Of a stretch of 64,000 nt of DNA, positions 11,431-28,110 are shown piece after piece; positions within the stretch are counted from its first letter, which is position 1; the number at the start of each line of letters is the position of its first letter. Source of the DNA: Vicinamibacteria bacterium (GTDB lineage Bacteria > Acidobacteriota > Vicinamibacteria > Marinacidobacterales > Marinacidobacteraceae); contig OZ219816.1 in assembly GCA_964291235.2 (NCBI GenBank), positions 736,001 through 800,000 of the forward strand, read 5' to 3'. The position numbers and the translations under genes are program-made. The notes below the pieces were generated by a model. That model searched no databases. It was not told where the DNA came from and saw only the letters and a list, made by a program, of their open reading frames with translations.

Positions 11431-11480
11431 CCTGCCGCCCGCCTGCGGCGGGCTGTGCCGACCTGGAGGTCGGCGTTCCC
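11431..11480 (-). repeat. Inverted REP-like copy closing the array
   Basis: Reverse complement GGGAACGCCGACCTCCAGGTCGGCACAGCCCGCCGCAGGCGGGCGGCAGG matches the unit head with a compensatory stem change. Confidence 0.85.
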
Positions 11481-15913: not shown

Positions 15914-16660
15914 TCAAAGAGTTGGCGTGAGGCTGAAATCGGTCCAGACGCCGAAGTGGTCGGAAAGGTGCTCGTCGCCGATCCGCTTGGGCCAGATTCC
16001 CATGTCAGTGCTGCGGGTCAGGTCGCCAGTGTGGCCGATGTGGTCAATCGCCAGACCCGGATCGCCGGGCAGCTCTCCGGTAGTCGCGATTGTGAGGCCG
16101 TCGAAAGCCGACCTGAGGGCTCGGTACATGTGCTCCGGAGTTGTGCAGCGCGGGATGCGCTGGTTGAAGTCTCCCAAGACGACCGTCCGGACACCGGACG
16201 TTCGATACGGCAGTCGTTCAAACTCCCGGAGCCAAGCCTCGTGGTCCTCCCAACGCTTCCGGTCCCGCTGACCGCTCTTGACGTGAGCGCCAGCCCAGGG
16301 AATGCAAACCCCGACGACGGTTATCCGACCGATCGGGGTTGTGGTGACGCCCTTGACGAAACGGCCTTTGGGCAGGTCTGAAGAATCCTCGCGATCCTCT
16401 TCGGACCACGGGGCGCGGCTCCAGAGGAGCACTTTCCTGCGGTTCTGAGGCCGCACTCGGTAGCCCCAGTCCGTCCCGGCATCGATGATGCAGCCTTCGC
16501 TGGGCAGGAGACCTGCCGATCCCTCCGTTACGCACAGGATGTCGCAGTCGGTGTCCGCGAGGGCGGCACGGACGCGAGCCCCCCGTGGCCGATCGGGCAC
16601 GGCCCATTGAGTGTTCCAAGTGCCGATACGGACGGTGGGTGCCTGCGCATGCTGAACCAT
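15914..16660 (-). CDS. Endonuclease/exonuclease/phosphatase (EEP) family protein
   Basis: IGTWN, DILCVTE, VLGDFN, IDHI, SDHFGV. Confidence 0.9.
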   Translation of the reverse strand: MVQHAQAPTVRIGTWNTQWAVPDRPRGARVRAALADTDCDILCVTEGSAGLLPSEGCIIDAGTDWGYRVRPQNRRKVLLWSRAPWSEEDREDSSDLPKGRFVKGVTTTPIGRITVVGVCIPWAGAHVKSGQRDRKRWEDHEAWLREFERLPYRTSGVRTVVLGDFNQRIPRCTTPEHMYRALRSAFDGLTIATTGELPGDPGLAIDHIGHTGDLTRSTDMGIWPKRIGDEHLSDHFGVWTDFSLTPTL

Positions 16661-16734
16661 GGCGGCCGGGGACCGTACCACCCCGGCGCAGCGTCAGGCG
16701 TCGCCGGGTGGGCGGCGGCGGACGACCGTTCGGG

Positions 16735-17535
16735 CTATGCGCGGGGGGCAGCGACCGTGGGCCAGGCGCCGCGCACCGAGCCCCAATGGCGCGTCAACGA
16801 GCGGAACCCGGCGGATGATGGATCCGGAGTGGCCGGGCTTCCCTGTGAATCCAGGTAGAGGCTGCCGACTTCACTTGCGGGAAGGTCCGCCACCAGTGTC
16901 CGGGCCTCGTCCATCGCGGTGAGCCAGCGGCGCTTGAGGGCGCCGAGGTCGAGCGGTTCCCGGAGCGCCAGCCGGTGGAGGTCCGTTTCGGTATAGGCCG
17001 CGTGCCGCGCCGTCTGCTCCAGCAGGAAGTCCGGGGTGTAGCCCGGATCCTGGCCGCAGGCGGCCCACGCCAGCGCACCCAGCGACAGGTAGGTGTCGTG
17101 GAGATGGAGCACGTCCACGAAGTCGCGGATCTCGTTGCGTCCGGCCAGCGCCAGGACCTTGTTGATGGCGGCGTCGGCATCGTGCAAGCGATAACCGCAC
17201 CGGTCGTCCTGCTGAATCGGATAGAACCGGAACGCGCTGTCATGAGCCCACTCGATCCTCAGCGAGGCGGCGCCCAATCGGGTGACCGCGCGGTGAAATG
17301 CCGAGGTCCGGAGCAGCCAGGACACCTCGTAGCCGGCTTCCCGCAGGGTTGTCGCATCCGCCTCCGCGCAGAGGGCCACGCTTTCTTCCAGGTCGTGGAA
17401 GAGATCGAGATCGAGCGAATAGCGTGGCGTCCGTTTCTCCCGGTGGAGCACCGTCGCGCCAGCGACATAACTGTCCGGGCTGCGGTTGCACGCAATGAGG
17501 CGCAAGACCTCAACCTGGAAGGGACTTAGCGGCAT
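16735..17535 (-). CDS. AbiEii-like nucleotidyltransferase (putative toxin)
   Basis: VAGATVL...RYSLDLDLF, NKVLALAGR...RDFVD; start at MPLSPFQ overlaps the upstream gene. Confidence 0.7.
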   Translation of the reverse strand: MPLSPFQVEVLRLIACNRSPDSYVAGATVLHREKRTPRYSLDLDLFHDLEESVALCAEADATTLREAGYEVSWLLRTSAFHRAVTRLGAASLRIEWAHDSAFRFYPIQQDDRCGYRLHDADAAINKVLALAGRNEIRDFVDVLHLHDTYLSLGALAWAACGQDPGYTPDFLLEQTARHAAYTETDLHRLALREPLDLGALKRRWLTAMDEARTLVADLPASEVGSLYLDSQGSPATPDPSSAGFRSLTRHWGSVRGAWPTVAAPRA

Positions 17536-17798
17536 AGCCGGGCGGCGATTCGGAACCCCTTCCGTCCGCCGTGCTGCCGGAGGCCGCGGACGATCTCGGG
17601 GATATCTTCGAGCGTAACGATCAGATCGGGGCGCAGGTACCAGAAGCACTGGGCGCGAAACTCGCGGAACGCCCGCCGCGCCTCACGCACCCGGACCATG
17701 TCCCGGGCCTCGTCGGAAGAGAGGTTGCGGCGGCTCCGCAATCCACCCCGTCGACCAATTCGGGAGAAGTACTCCCTCACTGCGGGGGGCGGGTCCAT
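17526..17798 (-). CDS. Small partner protein (putative antitoxin)
   Basis: 90 aa; SRIGRRGG N-terminus and CFWY...IVRGLRQHGG; 10-bp overlap with NTase; TAGAAT 6 nt upstream of ATG. Confidence 0.6.
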   Translation of the reverse strand: MDPPPAVREYFSRIGRRGGLRSRRNLSSDEARDMVRVREARRAFREFRAQCFWYLRPDLIVTLEDIPEIVRGLRQHGGRKGFRIAARLCR

Positions 17799-17891
17799 GT
17801 GCGCATTCTAACGTAAGCAGTTTATGTTTGAATGCAATACGCGAGTGAGCGTGGCGCAACCCGGGGCCGTCGGTTTCGCGCTCCCGCGCGA

Positions 17892-17906
17892 TGCCGACCG
17901 GAGGTC
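17892..17906 (+). repeat. att core, left copy
   Basis: TGCCGACCGGAGGTC, identical to 26708-26722. Confidence 0.8.
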
Positions 17907-17934
17907 TGCTTCTGAATGGATTTAAATTGCGATT

Positions 17935-17947
17935 TATCAATGAGTTA
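17935..17947 (+). promoter_or_regulatory. IHF consensus site in left att arm
   Basis: TATCAATGAGTTA is an exact match to WATCAANNNNTTR, in an AT-rich patch. Confidence 0.7.
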
Positions 17948-18554
17948 CGTGCAGTTCTAAAATCCAGATATCACTGCGGCTATCACGCACGGCGATGACC
18001 GGGTCGCGTCGACTCTTGTAGGAACGGTCGGGAAGTCAAGGTAAGCGTTCGGTCGTGGGGGCATGGAGCAGACGCCCGTGTCACTCTCCCGCCGGCAGAG
18101 CCCGATGTTCCTGGTCCGGCGTTCGGCGGCCTCGTCAGGGCGGGGTAGCGGTGTTTTCCTGTGGAATGAGGGCGCCGACAACACCGCACTGCGCCAGCGT
18201 TTACACGACAGCGCGCAAATCAAGGACGACACGAGAATCGTGGGTGACCAGCACGGCGAGATCGCCTTGTTGTTCGACGGCGTCGCCCTCGCTCTTGGGA
18301 TGCGGCGCAGCGGTGCGAAGCAGTGAGGGACCACCACATACCCCCACGACCGAACGCTTACAAGTCAAGTCTGGAAGTCTGATCGGATGACAGCCGTTCC
18401 GCGGGGGCAGCGGCCACCGATCGGGCCGCGATGTCCCTGGGGACGGGACGCGGAAGGTGCATGCATGGCGGGCCTTCCGGAGGGCGCCATCGTATGCGTC
18501 CCGACGCCGGCCCGCAGGCCGGCGCCGGTCGCTGCCTCCGGACGGGGAGATTGG

Positions 18555-20442
18555 CTAACGATTGGGGCAGATTTCCGGCAGGTTCGGCGGGCTCTTCTCC
18601 AACCGGACGTGCGTCGAAAGCCACGTGTTCATCGGGACACCGCCAAGCGCCCACACTTCCACCCGGTAGTCGCAGGGCAAGGACTGCCCCGGGATCTGGA
18701 ACCATTCGAAGGCCGTCTCCGCCGGGATGGTCACGGTCCACCATTTCTGGTTGGGTTCGTTCTGCCATACCTGGATGTTGAATCCGTAACCCAGAACATT
18801 GTCGTTCCGGGAGACGAGAAAGCGGAGGTACGAATATTCCCCGTCAACCGCGTCGCGTCCGCCGGAGAGCGTCTTCGTGGCCGGTACGAGGGTTCCGTAT
18901 TGAGGCAGGCAATAGTCACTCGCCTCGACCTCGAAGTTTGCTGCAACCGGATCCGATCGGAGAGCACGGGCAACATCGCGCGCGCAGCTTCCGCCGGTTG
19001 TGATTTGCCAAGCGTTGCCGACACGGTCCAATCCCGCTGCTGCGCCCTTGTAGACAATCACCGTAGCCCCGTTGGCGTAGTCCGCAGTCGGCGTGGCGCC
19101 CGGTTTCGCCGTCAATCGGAGCCACTCGGTATGGAGCCGGATCCCGCTGCTGTGCCTCACCTCGGTGCTGAACTCCACGCTCGCCGGCCTCGCGGGCAAG
19201 TCCGGTTGGTCCGGTTGGCCTTCGACTCCGATAAGAATGAGATCGTCGTCCCAGACGCGGAGGAGCACGTCCGCCGTCCCGATCCTGAACGGCAACCGGA
19301 TGTCCTCGTAGGCCTCGATCTCCGCCGTGGCGAGGCCGCCGGGCTGCGTCGCCTTGCTGACCACGTTGTCGTCCGTGGTGACGGTGAGGAATCCGGAGAG
19401 CCGGATTTCGTTCGACGTGCCGTCCACGGACCAACCGATGTTGTCCTTCCCGCGGTTCATGCCCGTCAGGATCGTGCTACCCGAGTCGCTCCAGACCGCC
19501 GTCCAACCGGTAGGAACCGAGGCGTCGAAGGTCGGAGCGCCGGTCCCGATCAGAACGCCACCGTCGTAGATCTCAGCCAGGTTGCAGCCCTCGTAGGTGT
19601 CCACCACGAAGTCGCCGCCCTCGGCCCGCGCGCTCATGCGCGGCCGGGGGCCGCTCTCGGCGTGCGGCCGGTAGGGGTAGCCGCAGGACAGGTACATCGT
19701 GGACGTGCCCGTGGCATTCTGAGGATCCGCCAGCGAGTTCACCACCTGCTGCTGCCGGACCGGCTGCTGCTGCCGGACCGGCTCCTGCTGCGGGACCGGC
19801 GTCGGGGCCGCCTCGTCCTCGACGATGACGACCGTCCACACCACGCTGCTTCCGTTGATGTGCAGTCCGACGGACTTGCGGTCTCCCGTGTAATCGGAGT
19901 CGTTCGCCCGGGCGTCGTAGTTGAAACCGAGCGTGCCGTCCGCGTCCCACTTCACCGCGAGCGCGCTCGGGTTCCCGCCCCGCAGCGGAGACACATCGGC
20001 GAAGAGGTTCTGCCAGCCGTTGCTCGCCGTTCCCGTGTTGCCGCCCGGATTGGCGATCCCCGAGCACCGGCCCGCCGCGGAGCCGCCGTCGTTGTAGCGG
20101 CCGTTCTCGGGAATCCGGATCTCCCGCTCGGTAGCGCTCACCGCCACGATCTCCAGGTTGTCCGAGGAGTAGGGCCCCCAGCGGCCACCGGAGCGCGGAG
20201 TGCAGGTCTGCACGGAGGTCGCCAGGATCTGCATCTGCCCGCCCACGGACTGCGCCGTGAGGCCGTCGCCTCCCCCGCCCGCCGGGGGCGCCGCATCCGA
20301 GGCCGCGGGGGAGGGCGCTGCCGGAACGGGCGCGGTGGGGCTATCCGACCCGCAGTTCGCCATGAGGAGAACGGCCAGAGCCGCTACCGCAAGGCCGTGT
20401 CCGGTCCGGGCTTCGTGTGTGTGTGTGTGTGTGTGTGGTCAC
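18555..20442 (-). CDS. Large predicted surface lipoprotein, frameshifted at an (AC)11 tract (putative phase-variable gene)
   Basis: 602-aa ORF 18555-20363 preceded in frame by HGLAVAALAVLL before MANC; GGAGG RBS and GTG at 20442 lie out of frame across the repeat. Confidence 0.75.
20415..20436. repeat. (GT)11 / (AC)11 simple sequence repeat
   Basis: Direct read of 11 GT units. Confidence 0.95.
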
Positions 20443-20786
20443 GATTTCCTCCGATATTCTCCGCCGCTTCCGCACGCGCGGCGCGGACTATAACGCCCAC
20501 CTTAGCGCGCCGGTCCAAAGAAGCAAGCGCAAAGGACTTCACAGCCATGATGCCCTCCGCGCCCCGTGCTGAGGCGGATCACCCTCCGAACGCCACCCCG
20601 CCCGCCGACTGTTCCGAGTCGGACAGCGCGCTATGTCCCCCCGCGATGTGTGGCCGGAGCGGCTGCGGGGACGCGAACTCATGGAGGAGTGGTCGGCGTT
20701 TGTCGCACGATCTTGACATTCGCCCAGGCCCCTGACGTGGAGTACAGGTTTCCCTCCAAGGTCGTCCTGAGCGCCGTTTCCGTTGT

Positions 20787-21104
20787 ATGGTTGCCTGCTT
20801 GGTTGAGAAGGCACTGACACGATTCCTGCTTGGCGCCGTTGCCGTACTCGGCGCTTGTGCGGGCCGCACTCCGGCTCCGGCGGTCGAGGGAGTGGTCCCG
20901 CTCCCGGAGAGCGAGGTCCGGATCTACGAAGGCGATGACCGTGTCCCGGTCCACGATGTGGTCGCGATCCTCAAGGTCTCGGAGGAGCCTCCGGAGCGTG
21001 AAGACCTGCGAGAGCGTGCGGCGGAAATGGGCGCCAACGGCATTCTGCTCACGTACTACCGGTCCGGCGAAGGCACGATCGCTGTCGCAATCCGAACACG
21101 ATGA
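20787..21104 (+). CDS. Small lipoprotein (YbjQ/RcsF-like C-terminal motif)
   Basis: Lipobox LGAC after hydrophobic stretch; EDLRERAAEMGANGILL; start uncertain. Confidence 0.55.
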   Translation: MVACLVEKALTRFLLGAVAVLGACAGRTPAPAVEGVVPLPESEVRIYEGDDRVPVHDVVAILKVSEEPPEREDLRERAAEMGANGILLTYYRSGEGTIAVAIRTR

Positions 21105-21296
21105 GGGGCACCTCTTCGAGCGGCGGCGCGAGTCTTGGGAGAGTGGTCGGCGTTTCTGGACCGGGGTTGAGATTCGTCCAGGCGACGAACCGAATTCGCC
21201 CCCGGCAGGCTCGTAAACCCGGGGTCGAGTGTATTGACTGTGTCTCAGAGCGGCACCTGGCGGGCGGCTTCAGGTTCCCTCGCGAAAGGAGAGACG

Positions 21297-21551
21297 ATGA
21301 GCGACGACGGCAGCCCGGCCCCTGGGCGGCCTGTCACCCTAGAGACGCTCCTCCTTGTCACCTTGGTTGGCGCCGTGATCGGCGTGTACGTTCAGATGGG
21401 GAGTGTGCGCGTTGAAATGGTCGAGCGTGTTGCAACGGTGGAGCGTCGTCTACTCGAGGAGTTCGCGAAGACAGACGAGCGCCTCGCCAGCCTAGAAACC
21501 AAGATCGACATTCAGCAGGGTCCGGCTCAGTCTGGCAACGGAGGCCAGTAA
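21297..21551 (+). CDS. Small single-TM coiled-coil protein
   Basis: AAGGAG RBS; TM helix, then ERLASLETKID. Confidence 0.65.
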   Translation: MSDDGSPAPGRPVTLETLLLVTLVGAVIGVYVQMGSVRVEMVERVATVERRLLEEFAKTDERLASLETKIDIQQGPAQSGNGGQ

Positions 21552-21649
21552 GGCGGCAATCAGCCTCTAGCGACTCCGACACTCCACCGGGCTCGCTGCG
21601 ACCCGAGACACACTGGCAGGTTTGGTACCCTTAGAGTTGTAGGGACAGC

Positions 21650-21895
21650 ATGAACAACGGGAACGGTTGGCGGAACCTCTGGGCCGGATTGATGGTTGCC
21701 CTCATGGTGGTGCTCGTAGGAGTGGTCGTCCAACTGCATGTCACGATGGCAGATTTCCGAGTCGAGGTCGGCCAAGAAATCGGCTCTGTCCGCCTAGAGA
21801 TGGAGCGTCGATTCGGAGAGGTGAATGAGCGTCTCGCTCGGATCGAAACCCTGATCCAGCGCCTCGATCCGGATCTTTCGCAGCCGGCGGATTGA
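21650..21895 (+). CDS. Small single-TM coiled-coil protein, paralogue of 21297-21551
   Basis: TM helix; IGSVRLEM..RF.EVNERLARIET similar to MGSVRVEM...ERLASLET. Confidence 0.65.
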   Translation: MNNGNGWRNLWAGLMVALMVVLVGVVVQLHVTMADFRVEVGQEIGSVRLEMERRFGEVNERLARIETLIQRLDPDLSQPAD

Positions 21896-21941
21896 ACGTT
21901 CTTCGGGGACCGTAGGGGATACGCCCAGCCGTATTGGTTCC

Positions 21942-22271
21942 ATGGCAACGCTGGCCTTCCCGTTTCAGTGCGACGGCGGCGCGGATCGCGTGGCCTCAGC
22001 GCTCGGACTCCGGCAGTCCGGATCCGAGTGGATCGGCGACTGCCCCGCTTGCAAGCGCTCTGAGGCTTTGTCAGTCCGGGAGTCGCGCGATGGCCACCCC
22101 GCGCACATCCTTTGCGTCTGCCGGGGAGCGTGCGTGAGCGCGACCGCGTTCCGGACCGCTCTTGACGAAATCCTCGGTCCGGGGTCCCTGACCCAGCCGT
22201 TGCAGAGGAACACCCGGATCGCTGCCGATCTCCTGAGCTCCGGTGAGGGGTTTCCCCGAAAGCCCGAGTGA
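21942..22271 (+). CDS. Primase-type zinc-ribbon domain protein (stand-alone or truncated)
   Basis: EWIGDCPACK...LSV...CVCRGAC resembles N-terminal Zn fingers of phage/plasmid primases. Confidence 0.5.
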   Translation: MATLAFPFQCDGGADRVASALGLRQSGSEWIGDCPACKRSEALSVRESRDGHPAHILCVCRGACVSATAFRTALDEILGPGSLTQPLQRNTRIAADLLSSGEGFPRKPE

Positions 22272-22311
22272 GCCGGCGGGCTATGGGAGTCTGCTCCAGT
22301 CTGGATGGGTG

Positions 22312-23901
22312 TTAGCGGCTCTGACCGTGGTCCCGATCCCGCGTCCGGTCGCGCTGGCGGATCACCTCCAGCGCCCGCGCAACGTCTCGGCGAGCGTCTC
22401 GTAGTCCCGGTCCAAGCGCGTCATTTGCGCGCTGAGCAGCTCGACACGCCGCCGCAAGGCTTCGACCTGTGCGGCATGCTGCTCGACTTGCTGCCGCAAG
22501 ATTCCGCTCTCGGCGTCCTGCTGCTCGATGCGCCGCTGCAAGGCTCCGGCCAGCTCGGAGTGCCGCCGCTGCTCCTCGCAGTGCTGCTGCTGTGCCGTCT
22601 CGTACTCCTCGGACAACGCCCGCAAGGCGATCGTCAGTTGCCGTTCCAACTCGGTCATAGAGCTCCCTCACTCGCTCGATAGCTTCAAGGCAGGCCGCCC
22701 GCCCACGGTCCAGGGCGGATCCTCCAGCGCGCCGTCCGGCAGCACCAGGAACCGCTCCCCGTCGATCTCCCGTAGCGTCACGCCCCACGTCGTGTCCTCG
22801 ATCTTGGCCAGCGTGTCCCGGGCCTGATCGATCCGTACCTCCAGCATCGCCAAGGTCTCGATCTGGCTCTGGATGCTCGCCGACAACCATTGCATCAGCC
22901 CCCAGCTCCCGCCGCTGAACCCGAGAAAAAGGCTCAGGCCGACTACCAGGGGCCGCAGCCACGCTTTCAGCAGCATCCCGCGCATCCGCGCGACCGACGC
23001 TTCCGTATCGCTTTCGATGGTACGCAGCGCGCCATTCGCGACGGCGCGCAAGTTCTCGCCAAGCAGCCGCTGCTCGCTCGCCGCTGCCTCCTCGATCTGA
23101 CGGCGGTCGGTCGCCATCCGGTTCCTCATCCGGGCGGTCAAGTCGTTCGGGTCTGAAATCCTGCTCATACAGCGCTCCTTTCAGTCGCCACCGTTTTCCG
23201 CTGTCGGGATCGCGGGCGGTCAGGTAGTCCTTGCCCTGGCGGGGCACCTCGAAGCCGGCCTCCTCCAGCGCGGCAACCACGTCGGCGCGGCTCCGCACCA
23301 CGCCGTGCTCGACCCGCTGCAGCAGGTAGTCGCGGATCAGCTCGCGCGGGCCGGCTTCGTGCTCGAGCCCGGCCCGCAGCTTCGCCGCCTCCAGGTAGGC
23401 GCGATGGCCCGGCTGGTGCGCCCGGGCCCGCGTCGGGTCGTCCGGGCGGCTCCAGCCGTGCTGGTGGTTGAAACCGTCACGTAGCGGGCCGAAGGTCTTC
23501 TGCCAGCCGGGCGGAGCGATGTTCAGACTGCGGCCGGTCTCCAGGTCGCAGCGGGCGGTGAGGATGTGCACGTGGACCCCGGTGCCGTGCTCCCGGTGCA
23601 GGACCGCCGTCCAGGCGTAGCGGTCGGGCTCCAGTCCCGCCCAGGCCGTGTTCTCGAACTCGTCGAGGACAGCCCCGATCTGCGCGTCGGTGGGCCGGTC
23701 TTCCGGCGCCCACGCGATCACGCCCGAGGTGTACTTCCGCTCGAAGCCCAGGGAGTCGGCAAGGGCGGCCACCTGGTCCGGGTTGCCGCGGAGGACCTCG
23801 ATGCCCGGACGCACCCGTCCGGCGGAATCGCGTTCACCGACGAGATAGTCGGCCGAGGCGCGGGCGGAGCCGGTGCCGCCCGCAGCGAAGCTAATGTGCA
23901 T
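22312..23901 (-). CDS. mbeA: ColE1 MbeA-like relaxase (MOBP5-related)
   Basis: Motif I ADYL, KYTSGV, H-R-E-H...H-V-H, W.RPDDP, RLKGALY; two genes nested in the C-terminal half as in ColE1. Confidence 0.85.
   Translation of the reverse strand: MHISFAAGGTGSARASADYLVGERDSAGRVRPGIEVLRGNPDQVAALADSLGFERKYTSGVIAWAPEDRPTDAQIGAVLDEFENTAWAGLEPDRYAWTAVLHREHGTGVHVHILTARCDLETGRSLNIAPPGWQKTFGPLRDGFNHQHGWSRPDDPTRARAHQPGHRAYLEAAKLRAGLEHEAGPRELIRDYLLQRVEHGVVRSRADVVAALEEAGFEVPRQGKDYLTARDPDSGKRWRLKGALYEQDFRPERLDRPDEEPDGDRPPSDRGGSGERAAAAWRELARRREWRAAYHRKRYGSVGRADARDAAESVAAAPGSRPEPFSRVQRRELGADAMVVGEHPEPDRDLGDAGGTDRSGPGHAGQDRGHDVGRDATGDRRGAVPGAAGRRAGGSALDRGRAACLEAIERVRELYDRVGTATDDRLAGVVRGVRDGTAAALRGAAAALRAGRSLAAAHRAAGRRERNLAAASRAACRTGRSLAAACRAAQRANDALGPGLRDARRDVARALEVIRQRDRTRDRDHGQSR
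22362..22658 (-). CDS. mbeD: MbeD/MobD-like protein nested in relaxase gene
   Basis: MTELERQL..AL..L...Y N-terminus typical of MbeD; coiled coil. Confidence 0.75.
   Translation of the reverse strand: MTELERQLTIALRALSEEYETAQQQHCEEQRRHSELAGALQRRIEQQDAESGILRQQVEQHAAQVEALRRRVELLSAQMTRLDRDYETLAETLRGRWR
22668..23168 (-). CDS. mbeB: MbeB/MobB-like protein nested in relaxase gene
   Basis: Central TM helix and TWGVTLREIDGERFLVLPDG C-terminal motif. Confidence 0.75.
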   Translation of the reverse strand: MSRISDPNDLTARMRNRMATDRRQIEEAAASEQRLLGENLRAVANGALRTIESDTEASVARMRGMLLKAWLRPLVVGLSLFLGFSGGSWGLMQWLSASIQSQIETLAMLEVRIDQARDTLAKIEDTTWGVTLREIDGERFLVLPDGALEDPPWTVGGRPALKLSSE

Positions 23902-24229
23902 CGTCACGGTCTCCGCCGAGGCGGGCGACGACGCGCAACGAACGCTCGAACGCGACGAGGTTGGCGATCACCGTCACGGCTTCGGTGGCCGAGGTGTGGG
24001 TGTTGGCCCAGCGCGCGAGCTGGTTCAGGTTGTTGCCGATGCGGGCAACCTGGACGTTGCGCTCGCGCTCGATATCGGCCGCCGCCGCGGTCCAGGTGCG
24101 CGTCCGGGCCATCGCGTTCCGGAGCAGTGTGGACAGCGGGACTCCGGCAGCCGCGGCCTTGGCGCGCCAGGCGGCGCGGTCCGCCGGTGATACGCGGAGG
24201 TGGATCTGCACGGAGCGGCGCTCAGCCAT
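23891..24229 (-). CDS. mobC: MobC/MbeC relaxosome accessory protein
   Basis: RHH N-terminus and ARIGNNLNQLARWAN. Confidence 0.9.
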   Translation of the reverse strand: MAERRSVQIHLRVSPADRAAWRAKAAAAGVPLSTLLRNAMARTRTWTAAAADIERERNVQVARIGNNLNQLARWANTHTSATEAVTVIANLVAFERSLRVVARLGGDRDDAH

Positions 24230-24391
24230 GGGCGCACCGGTGAGGGGGTTCAGGGGGCGGCGCCCCCCGTCCGCGCACCGCTTCGGCGGTGGCGCGGCGG
24301 GCCGGGGGTTCGGGGGGCGATGCCCCCCGGCCGCACGCTGCTCCCGCAGCGGCGGATGCCGGGGGTTCGAAGGGGGGCGCAGCCTCCCCTC

Positions 24392-24426
24392 GCCAGTCCC
24401 ATTGTGTACACAATGGGTATGCTGGC
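24392..24426. other. Putative oriT (ColE1-like)
   Basis: Perfect 20-bp palindrome CCCATTGTGTACACAATGGG (24398-24417) running into GTATGCTGGC, similar to ColE1 nic GTATACTGGC; upstream of mobC. Confidence 0.7.
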
Positions 24427-24582
24427 CCTCGTGCCTTAGTGGTCATCAGGAAGGCACGAAGCCTGCCCCGAGTCCCGTGACGAGTGTTACCAGCCTATCG
24501 ACGGATAGGCTGCAAATGAGCGATCCGCCCTTGGCGTGTTATTGGCTTGCCGGCCACCGGCCGGACGCGAGAACGGGCTCGC

Positions 24583-24861
24583 TCAGCTGCCGCCGGGGAA
24601 GTTCCGGAAACCCGGTGCGGGACGGAAACGCACCACGCGTCCCGGGCGAATGCCCGCCGGCTCGCCGGTGCGTGGATTTCGCGCCTTTCCCGTCTTGCGG
24701 GGGCGCGTGTGGAAGACCCCGAACCGCCGGAGCACCACACGGTCGCCGCGCGCCAGCGCGGAGGCAACGGATTCGAACAGCGCCTCCACGGCGTCCTGCG
24801 CGGCGGGAGACTCCAGATTCGCCGCCTCCATCGCCCGGTCGACGAGGTCCGCCTTCACCAT
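24583..24861 (-). CDS. HU/IHF-family DNA-bending protein
   Basis: MVKADLV...GDRVVLRRFGVF...ARNPRTGE...VVRFRP. Confidence 0.9.
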   Translation of the reverse strand: MVKADLVDRAMEAANLESPAAQDAVEALFESVASALARGDRVVLRRFGVFHTRPRKTGKARNPRTGEPAGIRPGRVVRFRPAPGFRNFPGGS

Positions 24862-25349
24862 GCGGAGCGCATCATGGGCGACACGCGACATCGAATAGTC
24901 TCTCCGACCACAGGAGCTGGAGAGCCGGACTCCGGTGACCTCCTCCACCCATCCCGCCGCTGGCGGCTCCGGCGGCAGTTGCCGCCGCCAGTGGCACCCC
25001 GACGCCGCCGCCCAAACTGATGCACCAACGGGTTCGCTCGCGCTGATCGTCATGGGAAGGCTGGCCGCGCCGTCCGGGCGGATTCGGTGACGGAGACTGG
25101 GCCGGTGGGAAAAAGACGCCGCCGGCAGCCGAGGTCAGTCTGGGGGTTGCTCGGGGTCCTGTTTGCCGTGTGGCTCGCCTTTGCGGTCGTATCCGTTGCC
25201 CTGCTCTCGGGGAGCTGCTGAGGCCCGGAGCCTCGGTCCGGGCCGGAGATCGCGTGTGGCTTGAAGTCACGGATAGCTTGGGCCGCTACCGGGCTGCGGC
25301 GGCAGCCGGTAGAGGCCAGTTGCGCGGTCGCGGAACCTCTGGCGCTACC

Positions 25350-26522
25350 TCACGTTCCGGCCAGGAACGCGGCCCACTGCTCCATGAGCGCCCGCCGCCG
25401 CTCGAACAGGTCCGACCGCCGGTAGGCGGCCTCGATGGCGTTCGTGTTCACGTGCGCCAGCGCTAACTCGCACACCTCACGCGGAGCGTCCGAACACTCC
25501 GCCGCCCAGTCACGGAAGCTGGAACGGAAGCCGTGCGGCACCGCACCGATCCCCAGATCCCGGACCAGCTTCGCGATCGCCCGCTTGGACAGCAGCCCGC
25601 CCCGCGCCGAGGGGAACACCGGCCCCGCACCGTCCGCGAGCGCACGCGCCTTCTGGAGCACCGCCAGCGCCCCGCTGGACAGTGGAACCCGGTGCTCCCG
25701 GTTCGTCTTCATCCGCTCCGCGGGAATGCGCCACTCCTGCCGCTCAAGGTCTATCTCACTCCACCGCGCGCCGCGCACCTCGCCGCTCCGGCACGCCGTC
25801 AGCACCAGGAACTCAAACGCCAGTACCGTCGCCGGATACGCGCCCGACCCCCGCACCGTCTCGATGGCTACGGCGACCTCCGCGTACGGGAGCGCGGGGA
25901 GATGGCGCACCGGCACTCCGTTCCTGGGCAGGGCCGCCCCGATGGCCTCCCCCGCCGGGTTGTCCTCCCGGTAGCCCTGCGCCACCGCCCAGCGCATCAC
26001 TGCCGAGATCCGGTGCCGCACCCGACGCGCGGTCACCCGCTTCTCATTCCAGATCGGGAGCAGGATCCCCATCACGTCCGCCGTGGCGATCCGGTCCACC
26101 GGCCTCCCGCCGAGCTTCGGCAGGGCGTAGTCCCGGAGCGTCCCGCGCCAGTCCTCCTCGGACCGGCTTCCGTTCTTCCAACCGGCCCGATGCACGGCGA
26201 TCACCTTCTCGACGGCGTCCTCGAACATCGGGACCGTCCGCTTCCGGCCGGTCACCAGTTCCCCGCGTCGCCGGGCGGCGAGGTTCAGGGCGCACTTCTC
26301 GCGGGCTTCGGCCAGGCTGACGTGGGGCCATGATCCGAGTCCGAGGTTGCGCTGGCGACCGTCCACGCTGATGCGCTGCGCCCAGGACTTGGCCAGGTGT
26401 CCTCGGGCCGTATGCTTGACGAGGAGTGAGAGGCCGCCGGAGCCGCGTCCGTCGCCGTAGCGTCCGGGGTGCTCAATGGTGGCGACGAAGCGGGCGGAGA
26501 GGCGATAGGGTCGCTCCATCAT
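25350..26522 (-). CDS. P4-like tyrosine integrase with N-terminal arm-binding domain
   Basis: GRYGDG..GLSL, LG.WP.VSLAEAR; catalytic R (ACRSGE), K (MKTNREH), HGFR, LAH, AY all present. Confidence 0.95.
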   Translation of the reverse strand: MMERPYRLSARFVATIEHPGRYGDGRGSGGLSLLVKHTARGHLAKSWAQRISVDGRQRNLGLGSWPHVSLAEAREKCALNLAARRRGELVTGRKRTVPMFEDAVEKVIAVHRAGWKNGSRSEEDWRGTLRDYALPKLGGRPVDRIATADVMGILLPIWNEKRVTARRVRHRISAVMRWAVAQGYREDNPAGEAIGAALPRNGVPVRHLPALPYAEVAVAIETVRGSGAYPATVLAFEFLVLTACRSGEVRGARWSEIDLERQEWRIPAERMKTNREHRVPLSSGALAVLQKARALADGAGPVFPSARGGLLSKRAIAKLVRDLGIGAVPHGFRSSFRDWAAECSDAPREVCELALAHVNTNAIEAAYRRSDLFERRRALMEQWAAFLAGT

Positions 26523-26636
26523 GGCTTTTTCGTTCCTGAGGAGGGTTGTTGGTTCCTACCACTACCAAGTGGATATCAGAAAAACGGCGGGAACTATCGA
26601 GCTGCGGTCGTCCTCGGATGGAACACTATAGCACGA

Positions 26637-26649
26637 TAACTCGTTGATA
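26637..26649 (-). promoter_or_regulatory. IHF consensus site in right att arm
   Basis: Reverse complement TATCAACGAGTTA is an exact WATCAANNNNTTR match. Confidence 0.7.
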
Positions 26650-26707
26650 TACAACATGGATCGAAGCATGCAGAGGCACCAATCGGAATCTCATAGAACA
26701 GCAGAAG

Positions 26708-26730
26708 TGCCGACCGGAGGTCGGCGGTCC
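26708..26730. repeat. att core, right copy, within an intact REP-like palindrome
   Basis: TGCCGACCGGAGGTCGGCGGTCC, nearly the same as REP TGCCGACCTGGAGGTCGGCGTTCC at 11456-11479. Confidence 0.8.
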
Positions 26731-26784
26731 AGGTCCACGCGCCATGCGGGCTCCCGACTGGCCACGTCTCCTAGAATCCCGGCG

Positions 26785-28110
26785 ATGCGTGTGCTGCGGC
26801 GGAGGCTGCTCGTTGCCGGGGTCGCCGCCCTGGCGCTGGTTCCGGTTCTCTTCGGGGTCCGATTGCTCGACCGGATGGCGCTCGCCTATACGACGGGGCT
26901 GCGGCGGAGTCCGGACAGTCCGGGGTTCGGCGGCGTCATGCCGCCGTCCGACGGACCGCCGCCGGGCGTTGCCTTCATCGGCTTCTCGCAGCCGGCCGAA
27001 GACGCCGACGGCTTCGTGATGCGGCGGGTCACCGCCGAGGGCCGGGAGGCCGGGCTCCGCAGCGGGGACCGGGTCACGTCCGTGGACGGGGTGACGTACC
27101 GCGATGCGAGGGCGGCGATGGGGGGACTGATCAGTACCCGGCTCGCGGGCGAAACGGTGGACCTCACGGTCGTGCGGAGCGGGGAGGAACTCACCCTGCC
27201 ACTCCGCCTCTCGCGCTACGTGCGGCACCCGGCGGACCTGGGCTTGCCCTACGAGGAGGTATCGCTGGCTTCCGGAAGCGGCCACACGCTTCGCGGGTGG
27301 TGGATCCCTCCCCCCGCGGACAGCGATGGAAGAGCGGTGGTGTGGGTCCACGGCGCCCATTCCTCGCGCTACCAGGCGCTCGACCACGGCGCCGAGTTCC
27401 TGCACGCCCGCGGCTACGGCATCCTGACCATGGATCTCTCCGGCCGGGGCTCGAGTGACGGGGAATACATCACCTACACCTGGAACGAGCGTCACGACGT
27501 GGAGTCCGCGGTCCGCTATCTGCGGGAGCGCCAGGACGCCGATCCGTCCCGGGTGGTCATCTTCGGAACCTCGAACGGCGCCGCCTCCGCGATCTATGCG
27601 GCCGCTGAACTCGGGGATCTCCCGGCGCTCGCCCTCGACGCCCCCTATGCGGATCTCTGGCGGGCCGCGGGCTCCATGCTGGAGATGCGCGGCGGCGTTC
27701 CGGCGCTGCGCGGACCGCTCTCGCTCTTCGTGTGGGCGCGGACCGGTCTCCGGATCCGGGAAGTACGGCCCGTCGAAGTGATTGCCGAGATCCCGGGGCC
27801 GGTGCTCTTCCTGCACGGCGACAACGACCGCCAGGTGCCCCCTGAGCACAGCCTGGAGCTTCACGAAGCCCGACTGGCGGCCGACCTGCCTTCCCGGCGC
27901 TGGATACTCCCGGGTGGGGAGCACGGTTTTGACGACTACCCCCCTCGCGGCATCTTCTGGAACCGGGTCGCCGACTTTTTCGACGACGCGCTGGGTGGTC
28001 GTCCACCGGGCCGGGAACTCGGCGGCCCGACCCCGCACACACTCGACGATCCGACCTGGACCGAGAGTGGCGCTTCCCCGAACGCCGTGAACGGCGGCCG
28101 CCTCCAATGA
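26785..28110 (+). CDS. PDZ domain + alpha/beta hydrolase, membrane anchored
   Basis: TM, AGLRSGDRVTSVDG (PDZ), VHGAH, GTSNG, HGDNDRQVP, GGEH. Confidence 0.85.
   Translation: MRVLRRRLLVAGVAALALVPVLFGVRLLDRMALAYTTGLRRSPDSPGFGGVMPPSDGPPPGVAFIGFSQPAEDADGFVMRRVTAEGREAGLRSGDRVTSVDGVTYRDARAAMGGLISTRLAGETVDLTVVRSGEELTLPLRLSRYVRHPADLGLPYEEVSLASGSGHTLRGWWIPPPADSDGRAVVWVHGAHSSRYQALDHGAEFLHARGYGILTMDLSGRGSSDGEYITYTWNERHDVESAVRYLRERQDADPSRVVIFGTSNGAASAIYAAAELGDLPALALDAPYADLWRAAGSMLEMRGGVPALRGPLSLFVWARTGLRIREVRPVEVIAEIPGPVLFLHGDNDRQVPPEHSLELHEARLAADLPSRRWILPGGEHGFDDYPPRGIFWNRVADFFDDALGGRPPGRELGGPTPHTLDDPTWTESGASPNAVNGGRLQ

Follow-up and report, generated by a model that had tools for sequence, protein, structure and literature searches.

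The 64-kb window analysed here (64,000 nucleotides, positions 736,001 to 800,000 of contig OZ219816.1 of a Vicinamibacteria bacterium) carries a tyrosine integrase gene, an IHF/HU-like gene and mobilization genes that are bracketed by a 15-bp direct repeat. The bracketed 8.8-kb segment (17907-26707 plus the duplicated core) is, by sequence criteria, an integrative mobilizable element (IME). It resides in a genome of 3.45 Mb with 68% GC, assembled in two contigs, and interrupts a repetitive extragenic palindrome (REP). In an account that rests entirely on sequence comparison, we propose with considerable confidence that the clade to which this integrase belongs targets REP hairpins. An earlier note on this DNA had described a REP-homing IME, a reading that is now supported by the junctions of the integrase family, by orthologous empty sites and by REP counts.

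The integrase (25350-26522, minus strand; 390 aa) displays the P4/CP4-57-type domain order Arm-DNA-bind_3 (PF13356, 2.8e-8), Phage_int_M (PF22022, 3e-23) and Phage_integrase (PF00589, 8e-17), and it matches NF007246 at 3.8e-40, under the curated cut-off. The motifs CRSGE, HGFRSSFR, LAH and AAYRR can be read in the translation and cover what we take to be the catalytic signature, R...HxxR...H/W...Y; with these motifs present, the integrase looks intact. A PDB sequence search with this protein matched only two NMR entries of the core-binding domain. The neighbouring gene encodes an IHF/HU-like DNA-bending protein (24583-25053, minus strand; PF00216, 1.2e-20), for which IHF-alpha is the best NCBIfam match (1e-17, under the cut-off). 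Because its HU fold begins at residue 65, translation may in fact start further downstream. Further inward lie the genes of a NikA-like/MobC relaxosome accessory protein (23891-24229, minus strand; PF21983, 1.6e-12; PF05713, 1.2e-9) and of an MbeA/MobA-type relaxase of 531 aa (22312-23907, minus strand; PF03432, 27 bits), the latter matching NF047848 MbeA over residues 3-489 (E 5e-29, under the curated cut-off). These domain matches agree with the genes that the earlier note had placed between the repeats.

Two exact plus-strand copies of the 15-mer TGCCGACCGGAGGTC are present, at 17892-17906 and 26708-26722, as had been stated. The right copy extends as GGCGGTCC to a perfect 17-bp palindrome, GCCGACC-GGA-GGTCGGC (26709-26725), and the REP-like element at 11456-11479, previously described as almost the same, differs from this hairpin by an additional T in the loop. 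Beyond the left copy the sequence continues as TGCTTCTG, and the hairpin breaks off after GGTC, with its left arm, its centre and the first four right-arm bases remaining; the described contrast between a completed right copy and an interrupted left copy is therefore exact. On the host side of the left end lies the 5' part of the split REP (17872-17891, plus strand), composed of the GGTTTCGC tail and hairpin 1, TCGCGC-TCCC-GCGCGA (17876-17891), directly followed by the left 15-bp copy as attachment-site (attL) core (17892-17906, plus strand), which contains hairpin 2 as far as the fourth nucleotide of its right arm. At the opposite end, the exact repeat that forms the attR core (26708-26722, plus strand) is followed by the 3' part of the REP on the host side (26723-26730, plus strand), where GGC completes the palindrome and GGTCC corresponds to the REP tail. 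Across the genome, REPs are followed by a tail of the form GGCG[G/T]TCC.

Both ends contain a match to WATCAANNNNTTR, which we take to be the IHF-site consensus. The left match, TATCAATGAGTTA (17935-17947, plus strand), is located 29 bp inside the left end, and the right match (26637-26649, minus strand) is located 59 bp inside the right core, within the integrase-proximal attP arm (26523-26707, plus strand) that also contains GGAAC repeats. These are the only two matches in the window, with 0.12 expected. No tRNA or tmRNA gene was detected by ARAGORN in the whole window, consistent with the claim that neither end abuts a tRNA. At up to two mismatches the 15-mer has three matches against 0.68 expected, and three were reached in 4 of 100 shuffles. 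Since the 15-mer belongs to a repeat family, the repeat on its own is weak evidence; the evidential weight lies in the half-REP asymmetry of the two ends and in the comparative data.

The target belongs to a genuine multi-copy REP, of whose two hairpins it is the second. The repeat unit consists of a GTTTCGC tail, a variable hairpin 1, TGCCGRCC-GGA-GGYCGGCG and YTCC, and the target follows this layout as GTTTCGC, hairpin 1, TGCCGACC-GGA-GGTCGGCG and (G/T)TCC. Genome-wide, about 324 hairpin-2-type REPs were counted here (179 forward, 145 reverse), belonging to several sub-families. The 35 bp ending at 17906, 15-mer included, are found again, at 100% identity, in numerous places in each of the other 15 genus genomes, and the exact 17-bp target palindrome is present in 1-245 copies per genus genome, against none for a control pattern. 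For the hairpin-1 target palindrome, 0-107 copies per genome were found (control ≤ 1). At the sites inspected, the REPs lie between genes. A reversed-genome control for the palindrome count (183 vs 301) was discarded as invalid, because a reversed stem-loop remains a stem-loop, and a within-locus background was used instead. The genome (G000, contigs C1 and C2) also encodes a 243-aa open reading frame (ORF) at C1:16193-16924 (locus L109, C1:15839-17563) that matches PF01797 with 32-33 bits (cut-off 23) and is flanked by two reverse REPs (15839 and 15959) and five forward REPs (17063-17547) at a spacing of 121 bp. A PF01797 (IS200-like Y1 transposase) gene between inverted REP arrays is the arrangement of REP-associated tyrosine transposases (RAYTs). 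Tandem arrays of 4-5 REP units with a regular spacing of 88, 119 and 121 bp were also observed, at C1:277947-278299, C2:346041-346517 and C2:1062896-1063259.

Homologues of the integrase were collected from one genome per species; 274 relatives were found and 80 loci were kept. Most originate from metagenome-assembled genomes labelled Acidobacteria/Acidobacteriota, Vicinamibacteria or Candidatus Marinacidobacterium, with several loci per genome. Integrases 77-87% identical were also seen on contigs binned as Gemmatimonadetes, Gammaproteobacteria and Syntrophobacterales (L054, L079, L082, L088); as the L054 junction has an acidobacterial-type REP, mis-binning seems at least as likely as transfer. 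The junction test covered the 71 of the 80 loci with at least 215 bp of flank, leaving out four short-flank loci and five in which a contig end cuts the integrase N-terminus (L091, L094, L099, L106, L107). A 7+3+7 GC palindrome with at least 6 of 7 pairs started 164-166 or 184-186 bp from the integrase ATG at 48 of these 71 loci, compared with 110 of 15216 other 65-bp windows from the same loci (0.7%). Five further loci carry near-palindromes, seen by eye, that resemble hybrids of an element arm and a host arm. No tRNA was found at the junction in 60 homologue loci; the six tRNAs present are all distant. Close homologues thus sit at REPs of different loci and none at a tRNA, as the earlier note had anticipated.

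An alignment of 16 integrase-proximal arms (A2) shows conservation that reaches the palindrome and none beyond it, with GC.G..C...G..C.GC invariant. The target sites represent different loci, both REP orientations and different REP hairpins. Four palindrome classes were distinguished: hairpin 2 forward, then GTTCC; hairpin 2 reversed, then hairpin 1 and GAAAC; hairpin 1, GCGGCCC-TGC/GCA-GGGCCGC, in either orientation; and a GCGGAGC-GGA-GCGCCGC type. Mapping of both ends succeeded for 12 of the 23 foreign loci that offer about 10 kb of interior sequence, and for two of the three copies in the own genome; these elements measure 2.5-11.2 kb. In all 14 of them the sequence outside attL carries the 5' part of a REP and that outside attR its 3' part, and the pairs share a core of 10-19 bp with an identical central triplet at attL and attR. 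Candidate attL sites in L030, L037, L056, L057 and L076 were not counted, as their outer side has no REP half. Within-genome pairs of closely similar elements (L062/L063 and L043/L046) lose their similarity exactly at the REP, a pattern that we read as recent movement.

Close integrases (E ≤ 1e-150) number 0-18 per genome, 107 in total, across 16 genomes of the genus; a dispersed-repeat target would account for a family of up to 18 copies per genome. A tree was built from 68 integrases, leaving out truncated or interrupted sequences and those with an uncertain start (L043, L046, L059, L085, L091-L095, L097, L099-L101, L106, L107). Target classes cluster on this tree, with 20 changes against 47 for shuffled labels, and they switch repeatedly among near-identical integrases, including between forward and reverse use of one hairpin. 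The tree also contains a well-supported subclade, 75-80% identical (L073, L075, L079, L082, L086, L087, L088 and perhaps L090), that does not adjoin REPs; its members border instead on a conserved lipoprotein-like ORF (MKSFTGKF...), at its ribosome-binding site and start.

Orthologous sites were sought by querying 40 relatives with the left flank and comparing the loci returned. The two flanks are separated by 166-639 bp in six species of the same genus, compared with 8871 bp here, and the interval holds one or more REPs and no element. In two of these genomes (L022 and L024) a single intact two-hairpin REP occupies the insertion position, which is the layout of the predicted empty site; in L024 it reads GGTTTCGCG..GCGATGCCGACCTGGAGGTCGGCGGTTCC. 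Given that these genomes belong to other species, the sites are orthologous rather than same-strain empty sites. A match in layout to the expected empty site was thus recovered in these two related species. At the same position in two other relatives (L019, about 2650-2905; L020, about 2590-2905), the REP breaks off immediately behind GCGATGCC, where some 230 bp of unrelated DNA intervene before a complete REP; another insertion into this hairpin may have left them behind as a scar or remnant.

The host genes on either side of the element are divergent. To the left lies an AbiEii-like nucleotidyltransferase gene (16735-17798, minus strand) with a small upstream ORF, and to the right an alpha/beta-hydrolase gene (S9 peptidase-like) with a PDZ domain (26785-28110, plus strand). 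The element is located in the promoter region they share, about 63 bp upstream of the hydrolase ATG, and for this reason an insertion without consequence is not established: the claim of many harmless intergenic target sites stands as to their number, the REP being multi-copy, and is not borne out as to their harmlessness.

Two further close integrases are encoded in the own genome, belonging to elements el3 (86% identical) and el2 (81%). The 3.5-kb el2 (C2:1590985-1594491) sits in a different REP with the same crossover geometry. Its left repeat, TACCGACCGGAGGTC, is preceded by hairpin 1 and truncated after GGTC, whereas its right repeat, TGCCGACCGGAGGTC, continues as GGCGTTCC. In seven genus genomes the orthologues of its right flank aligned without an extra piece and none matched the integrase-proximal arm; a clear REP hairpin is visible at the orthologous site in three of the six genomes displayed (L112, L113, L117). 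The sole well-supported cargo ORF of el2 (C2:1591407-1591940, minus strand) encodes 177 aa with a lipoprotein-type signal (…LLLASC). The proximal junction of the el3 integrase (C2:233122-234291) lies on a hairpin-1-type palindrome. Elsewhere, at C2:557115-569761, integrase fragments with stop codons (pieces 75-80% identical, at 557-565 kb) accompany two full-length integrases that are 41-44% identical; this cluster looks like a pile-up of decayed elements.

Several results weigh against REP targeting or limit its reach. The strict palindrome rule fails at 23 of the 71 loci; 11 close homologues occur in other contexts, eight of them abutting the start of a lipoprotein-like ORF and three elsewhere, and all seven homologues from other phyla that are 57-60% identical have no palindrome. 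The distal end was not found in 11 of the 23 foreign loci, nor for el3, where it was sought within 14 kb and with k-mers over 80 kb. The number of integrase copies does not follow that of targets, one genome (G004) having 139 targets and zero close integrases. Perfect sites are few in the own genome, with only four exact target palindromes, two of which are occupied as attR sites of elements. The empty sites come only from other species, with flanks 78-86% identical, and in L018-L020 the interval is more complex than one REP; no same-species empty site was found in contig-level data. Excision was examined in Logan contigs of four sequencing runs (X5-X8) over region 16500-28100, leaving out runs X1-X4 (5-6% of words). 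No joint between 17906 and 26722 and no circle back-joint were present among the matches listed, and the run contigs stop at 17902, inside the REP. The circle junction proposed earlier therefore did not appear in these matches, in contig data that cannot show absence. Two metagenome scans, one with the 33-nt right end of the element and one with its 32-nt left end as exact queries and neither with the predicted circle junction or empty site, gave no matches.

According to the mechanism we favour, the attP core would recombine site-specifically with the second hairpin of a two-hairpin REP, resulting in an integrated element. The 17-bp REP palindrome would suit this role in that it resembles the core of a tyrosine recombinase, with two inverted 7-nt half-sites and a short asymmetric centre of 3 nt. 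A crossover within the 10-19 bp common to attP and REP would leave the 5' half of the REP in attL and the 3' half in attR, and excision would rebuild one REP. In L043, the attP core TGCGGACC-GGA-GGTTGGCG and the REP TGCCGACC-GGA-GGTCGGCG are identical over about 10 bp centred on the dyad; as identity narrows to this stretch when the attP and host arms differ, we infer that strand exchange and cleavage take place around the centre. The GGAAC repeats, the IHF-type arm sites and the element-borne IHF/HU-like gene would fit an intasome of the lambda/P4 kind. We likewise infer the roles of the IHF-like sites and protein, the function of the candidate origin of transfer (oriT) described below, and any present-day activity.

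Different lineages use hairpin 2 or hairpin 1, in either orientation. The occurrence of near-identical integrases on different targets suggests that retargeting needs little or no protein change. A tentative extension, which we consider possible and somewhat doubtful, is that the attP core, through its few central bases, rather than the protein sets the choice and orientation of the hairpin, while the protein requires only the GC.G..C...G..C.GC palindrome. If true, this would explain why near-identical integrases are found on hairpin 2 forward and reverse and on hairpin 1 with either centre, and it would provide a natural, easily re-aimed multi-copy landing system. An integrase retargeted through attP might also act on extruded or single-stranded hairpins.

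Of the other explanations, the one that survives best is structure-specific recombination, in which the integrase recognizes an extruded or single-stranded REP hairpin as IntI does with folded attC, perhaps during single-stranded conjugative entry. The targets vary in sequence around a constant 7+3+7 geometry and the invariant GC.G..C...G..C.GC, near-identical integrases occupy both orientations and different centres (L036/L044 vs L040/L089; L047 vs L038), one element arm, GCGGACC, is joined to five combinations of centre and right arm, and the relaxase on the element implies a single-stranded stage. We nevertheless regard this explanation as improbable, given that attL and attR have a common centre and are identical over 10-19 bp in all 14 mapped pairs, the pattern of ordinary homology-dependent duplex recombination, that the integrase has the domain order of arm-binding phage integrases with IHF-type sites in the arms, and that no IntI-type signal was obtained (XerA/integron-integrase model, E 1.9e-4, 21 bits vs a cut-off of 220).

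A second explanation would make the REP-like ends the property of the element, or a target-site duplication left by another kind of transposition, or REPs added later by a RAYT. Direct repeats do bracket the element and one copy of the core must travel in attP, yet attL retains only the 5' half of a REP and attR only the 3' half, and whole REPs are present at the empty sites of related species. The repeat length of 10-19 bp across elements suits att identity and not a duplication of fixed size, and a Pfam scan of 26 element ORFs yielded neither a DDE nor a HUH transposase, which together make this account very unlikely. Least likely of all is a chance neighbourhood, in which the true target is unique or unrelated and REPs are nearby merely as common intergenic repeats: REPs are indeed abundant (about 324 in the own genome) and the 15-mer by itself is not very significant, but the fixed-offset palindrome at 48 of 71 loci against a background of 0.7%, the end of inter-element conservation at the palindrome and the REP halves on opposite sides of the element leave this explanation next to no room.

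The remaining features of the element concern its mobilization and cargo. Upstream of mobC, a conserved non-coding segment (24275-24440, plus strand) constitutes a candidate oriT, with G5/C5 inverted repeats and the hairpin CCCATTGTGTACACAATGGG (24398-24417) followed by TATGCTGGCC, which we take to resemble a nic site. The segment is kept at seven other places in the own genome, some of them beside integrases that are only 41-45% identical, and the hairpin arms covary between copies. Copies of the segment lie at C2:1592836-1593008, C2:1674454-1674583, C2:568225-568355, C2:1677638-1677791, C2:564950-565079 and C1:2122-2207. As the segment is also found in the relaxase-less 3.5-kb el2, minimal elements would, if it is a shared oriT, be mobilized in trans. 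The C-terminal half of the relaxase (22312-23100, residues ~250-531) has an odd GC content by codon position, with 0.84-0.92 at the first position (GC1) and 0.40-0.50 at the third (GC3); the frame is still open here and in a 538-aa paralogue, and the other strand has no alternative long frame.

Between the relaxase gene and a cargo gene of 602 aa (18555-20363, minus strand; GC3 0.85) lie about 2 kb of small ORFs with no family match. The cargo protein has four homologues with 53-95% identity, whose alignment consensus starts MAxCGSDxPTAP, and no Pfam or PADLOC match; its AlphaFold model is unusable (pLDDT 29.9). An overlapping 782-aa ORF (18387-20735, plus strand) was rejected as a gene: with GC1 0.81, GC3 0.65, no family match and no homologues, it is an antisense artefact of the 602-aa gene. 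Near the left end, a repeated segment (18038-18362, plus strand) with 88-93% identity elsewhere in the genome contains an 87-aa ORF (18063-18326; GC3 0.81, no family match), which could encode a regulator or directionality factor. No Xis/AlpA-type excisionase was detected in the small element ORFs scanned, and no type IV secretion or coupling-protein family matched the element ORFs scanned, some small ORFs lying outside the scan.

In the textbook view, an island with a tyrosine integrase occupies a single site, at a tRNA gene or the end of a gene, and REP targeting has, to our knowledge, so far been attributed to insertion sequences. P4/CP4-57-type integrases typically insert at the 3' end of a tRNA or tmRNA gene, as a rule once per genome. 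The system described here resembles them in the three-domain order, the position of the integrase beside one att site, the short direct repeats and the IHF-type arm sites, and differs in its dispersed REP palindrome, the lack of a tRNA at any junction and the presence of up to 18 copies per genome. Insertion sequences that target REPs (IS1397, ISKpn1, ISPpu10 and the IS621/IS110 family) employ DDE or DEDD transposases, with IS621 additionally using a bridge RNA. They too exploit REP palindromes as multi-copy intergenic landing sites, whereas the present elements combine a tyrosine integrase and attP arms with mob genes and cargo, and no such transposase was found in the scanned ORFs.

A looser parallel, like the XerCD/dif hitchhikers below, is provided by integron integrases, tyrosine recombinases that act on imperfect multi-copy palindromic repeats, such as those of Vibrio cholerae. 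Their attC sites, however, are parts of the cassettes of a single array and recombine in a folded single-stranded form, in contrast with the dispersed RAYT-type REPs, the arm-binding domain and the absence of an IntI-family signal reaching the cut-off in the present case. In integrative mobile elements exploiting Xer (IMEX), the XerCD recombinase is host-owned and dif is a single site. The likeness is that they integrate at a palindromic site of recombination type that belongs to the host; the present elements bring their own integrase and have a multi-copy target. The REP13E12 target of phiRv1 is a long repeat element with few copies. This element of Mycobacterium tuberculosis has a site-specific integrase whose attB lies in this repeated chromosomal sequence, so that several sites are available (PMC9317374). 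It differs from the present elements in its serine recombinase and long repeat, as opposed to a short REP hairpin with tens to hundreds of copies.

In the part of an IME review available to us, tRNA genes, gene ends, oriT nic sites and AT-rich low-specificity targets are listed, high-specificity IMEs are described as almost always single-copy, and the word stem 'palindrom' is absent (PMC5704250). No REP-targeting tyrosine integrase is reported in the available parts of PMC3390384, PMC5704250 and PMC9317374. A literature search whose incomplete coverage left most subscription journals outside did not find a published tyrosine integrase that targets REPs, a result to be taken as 'not found' and not as 'not in print'.

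If the proposed targeting is true, REP hairpins would form a new class of attachment sites for arm-binding integrases, and the occurrence of a site-specific mobilizable element at 10-18 copies per genome would be explained. A REP palindrome that resembles a ready-made core site would offer a simple experimental handle on how integrases acquire their targets, and the minimal members of 2.5-3.5 kb, with an integrase, an oriT-like site and one small gene, would be compact natural vectors. Two selfish systems, RAYT/REP repeats and integrative elements, would then be linked in one genome.

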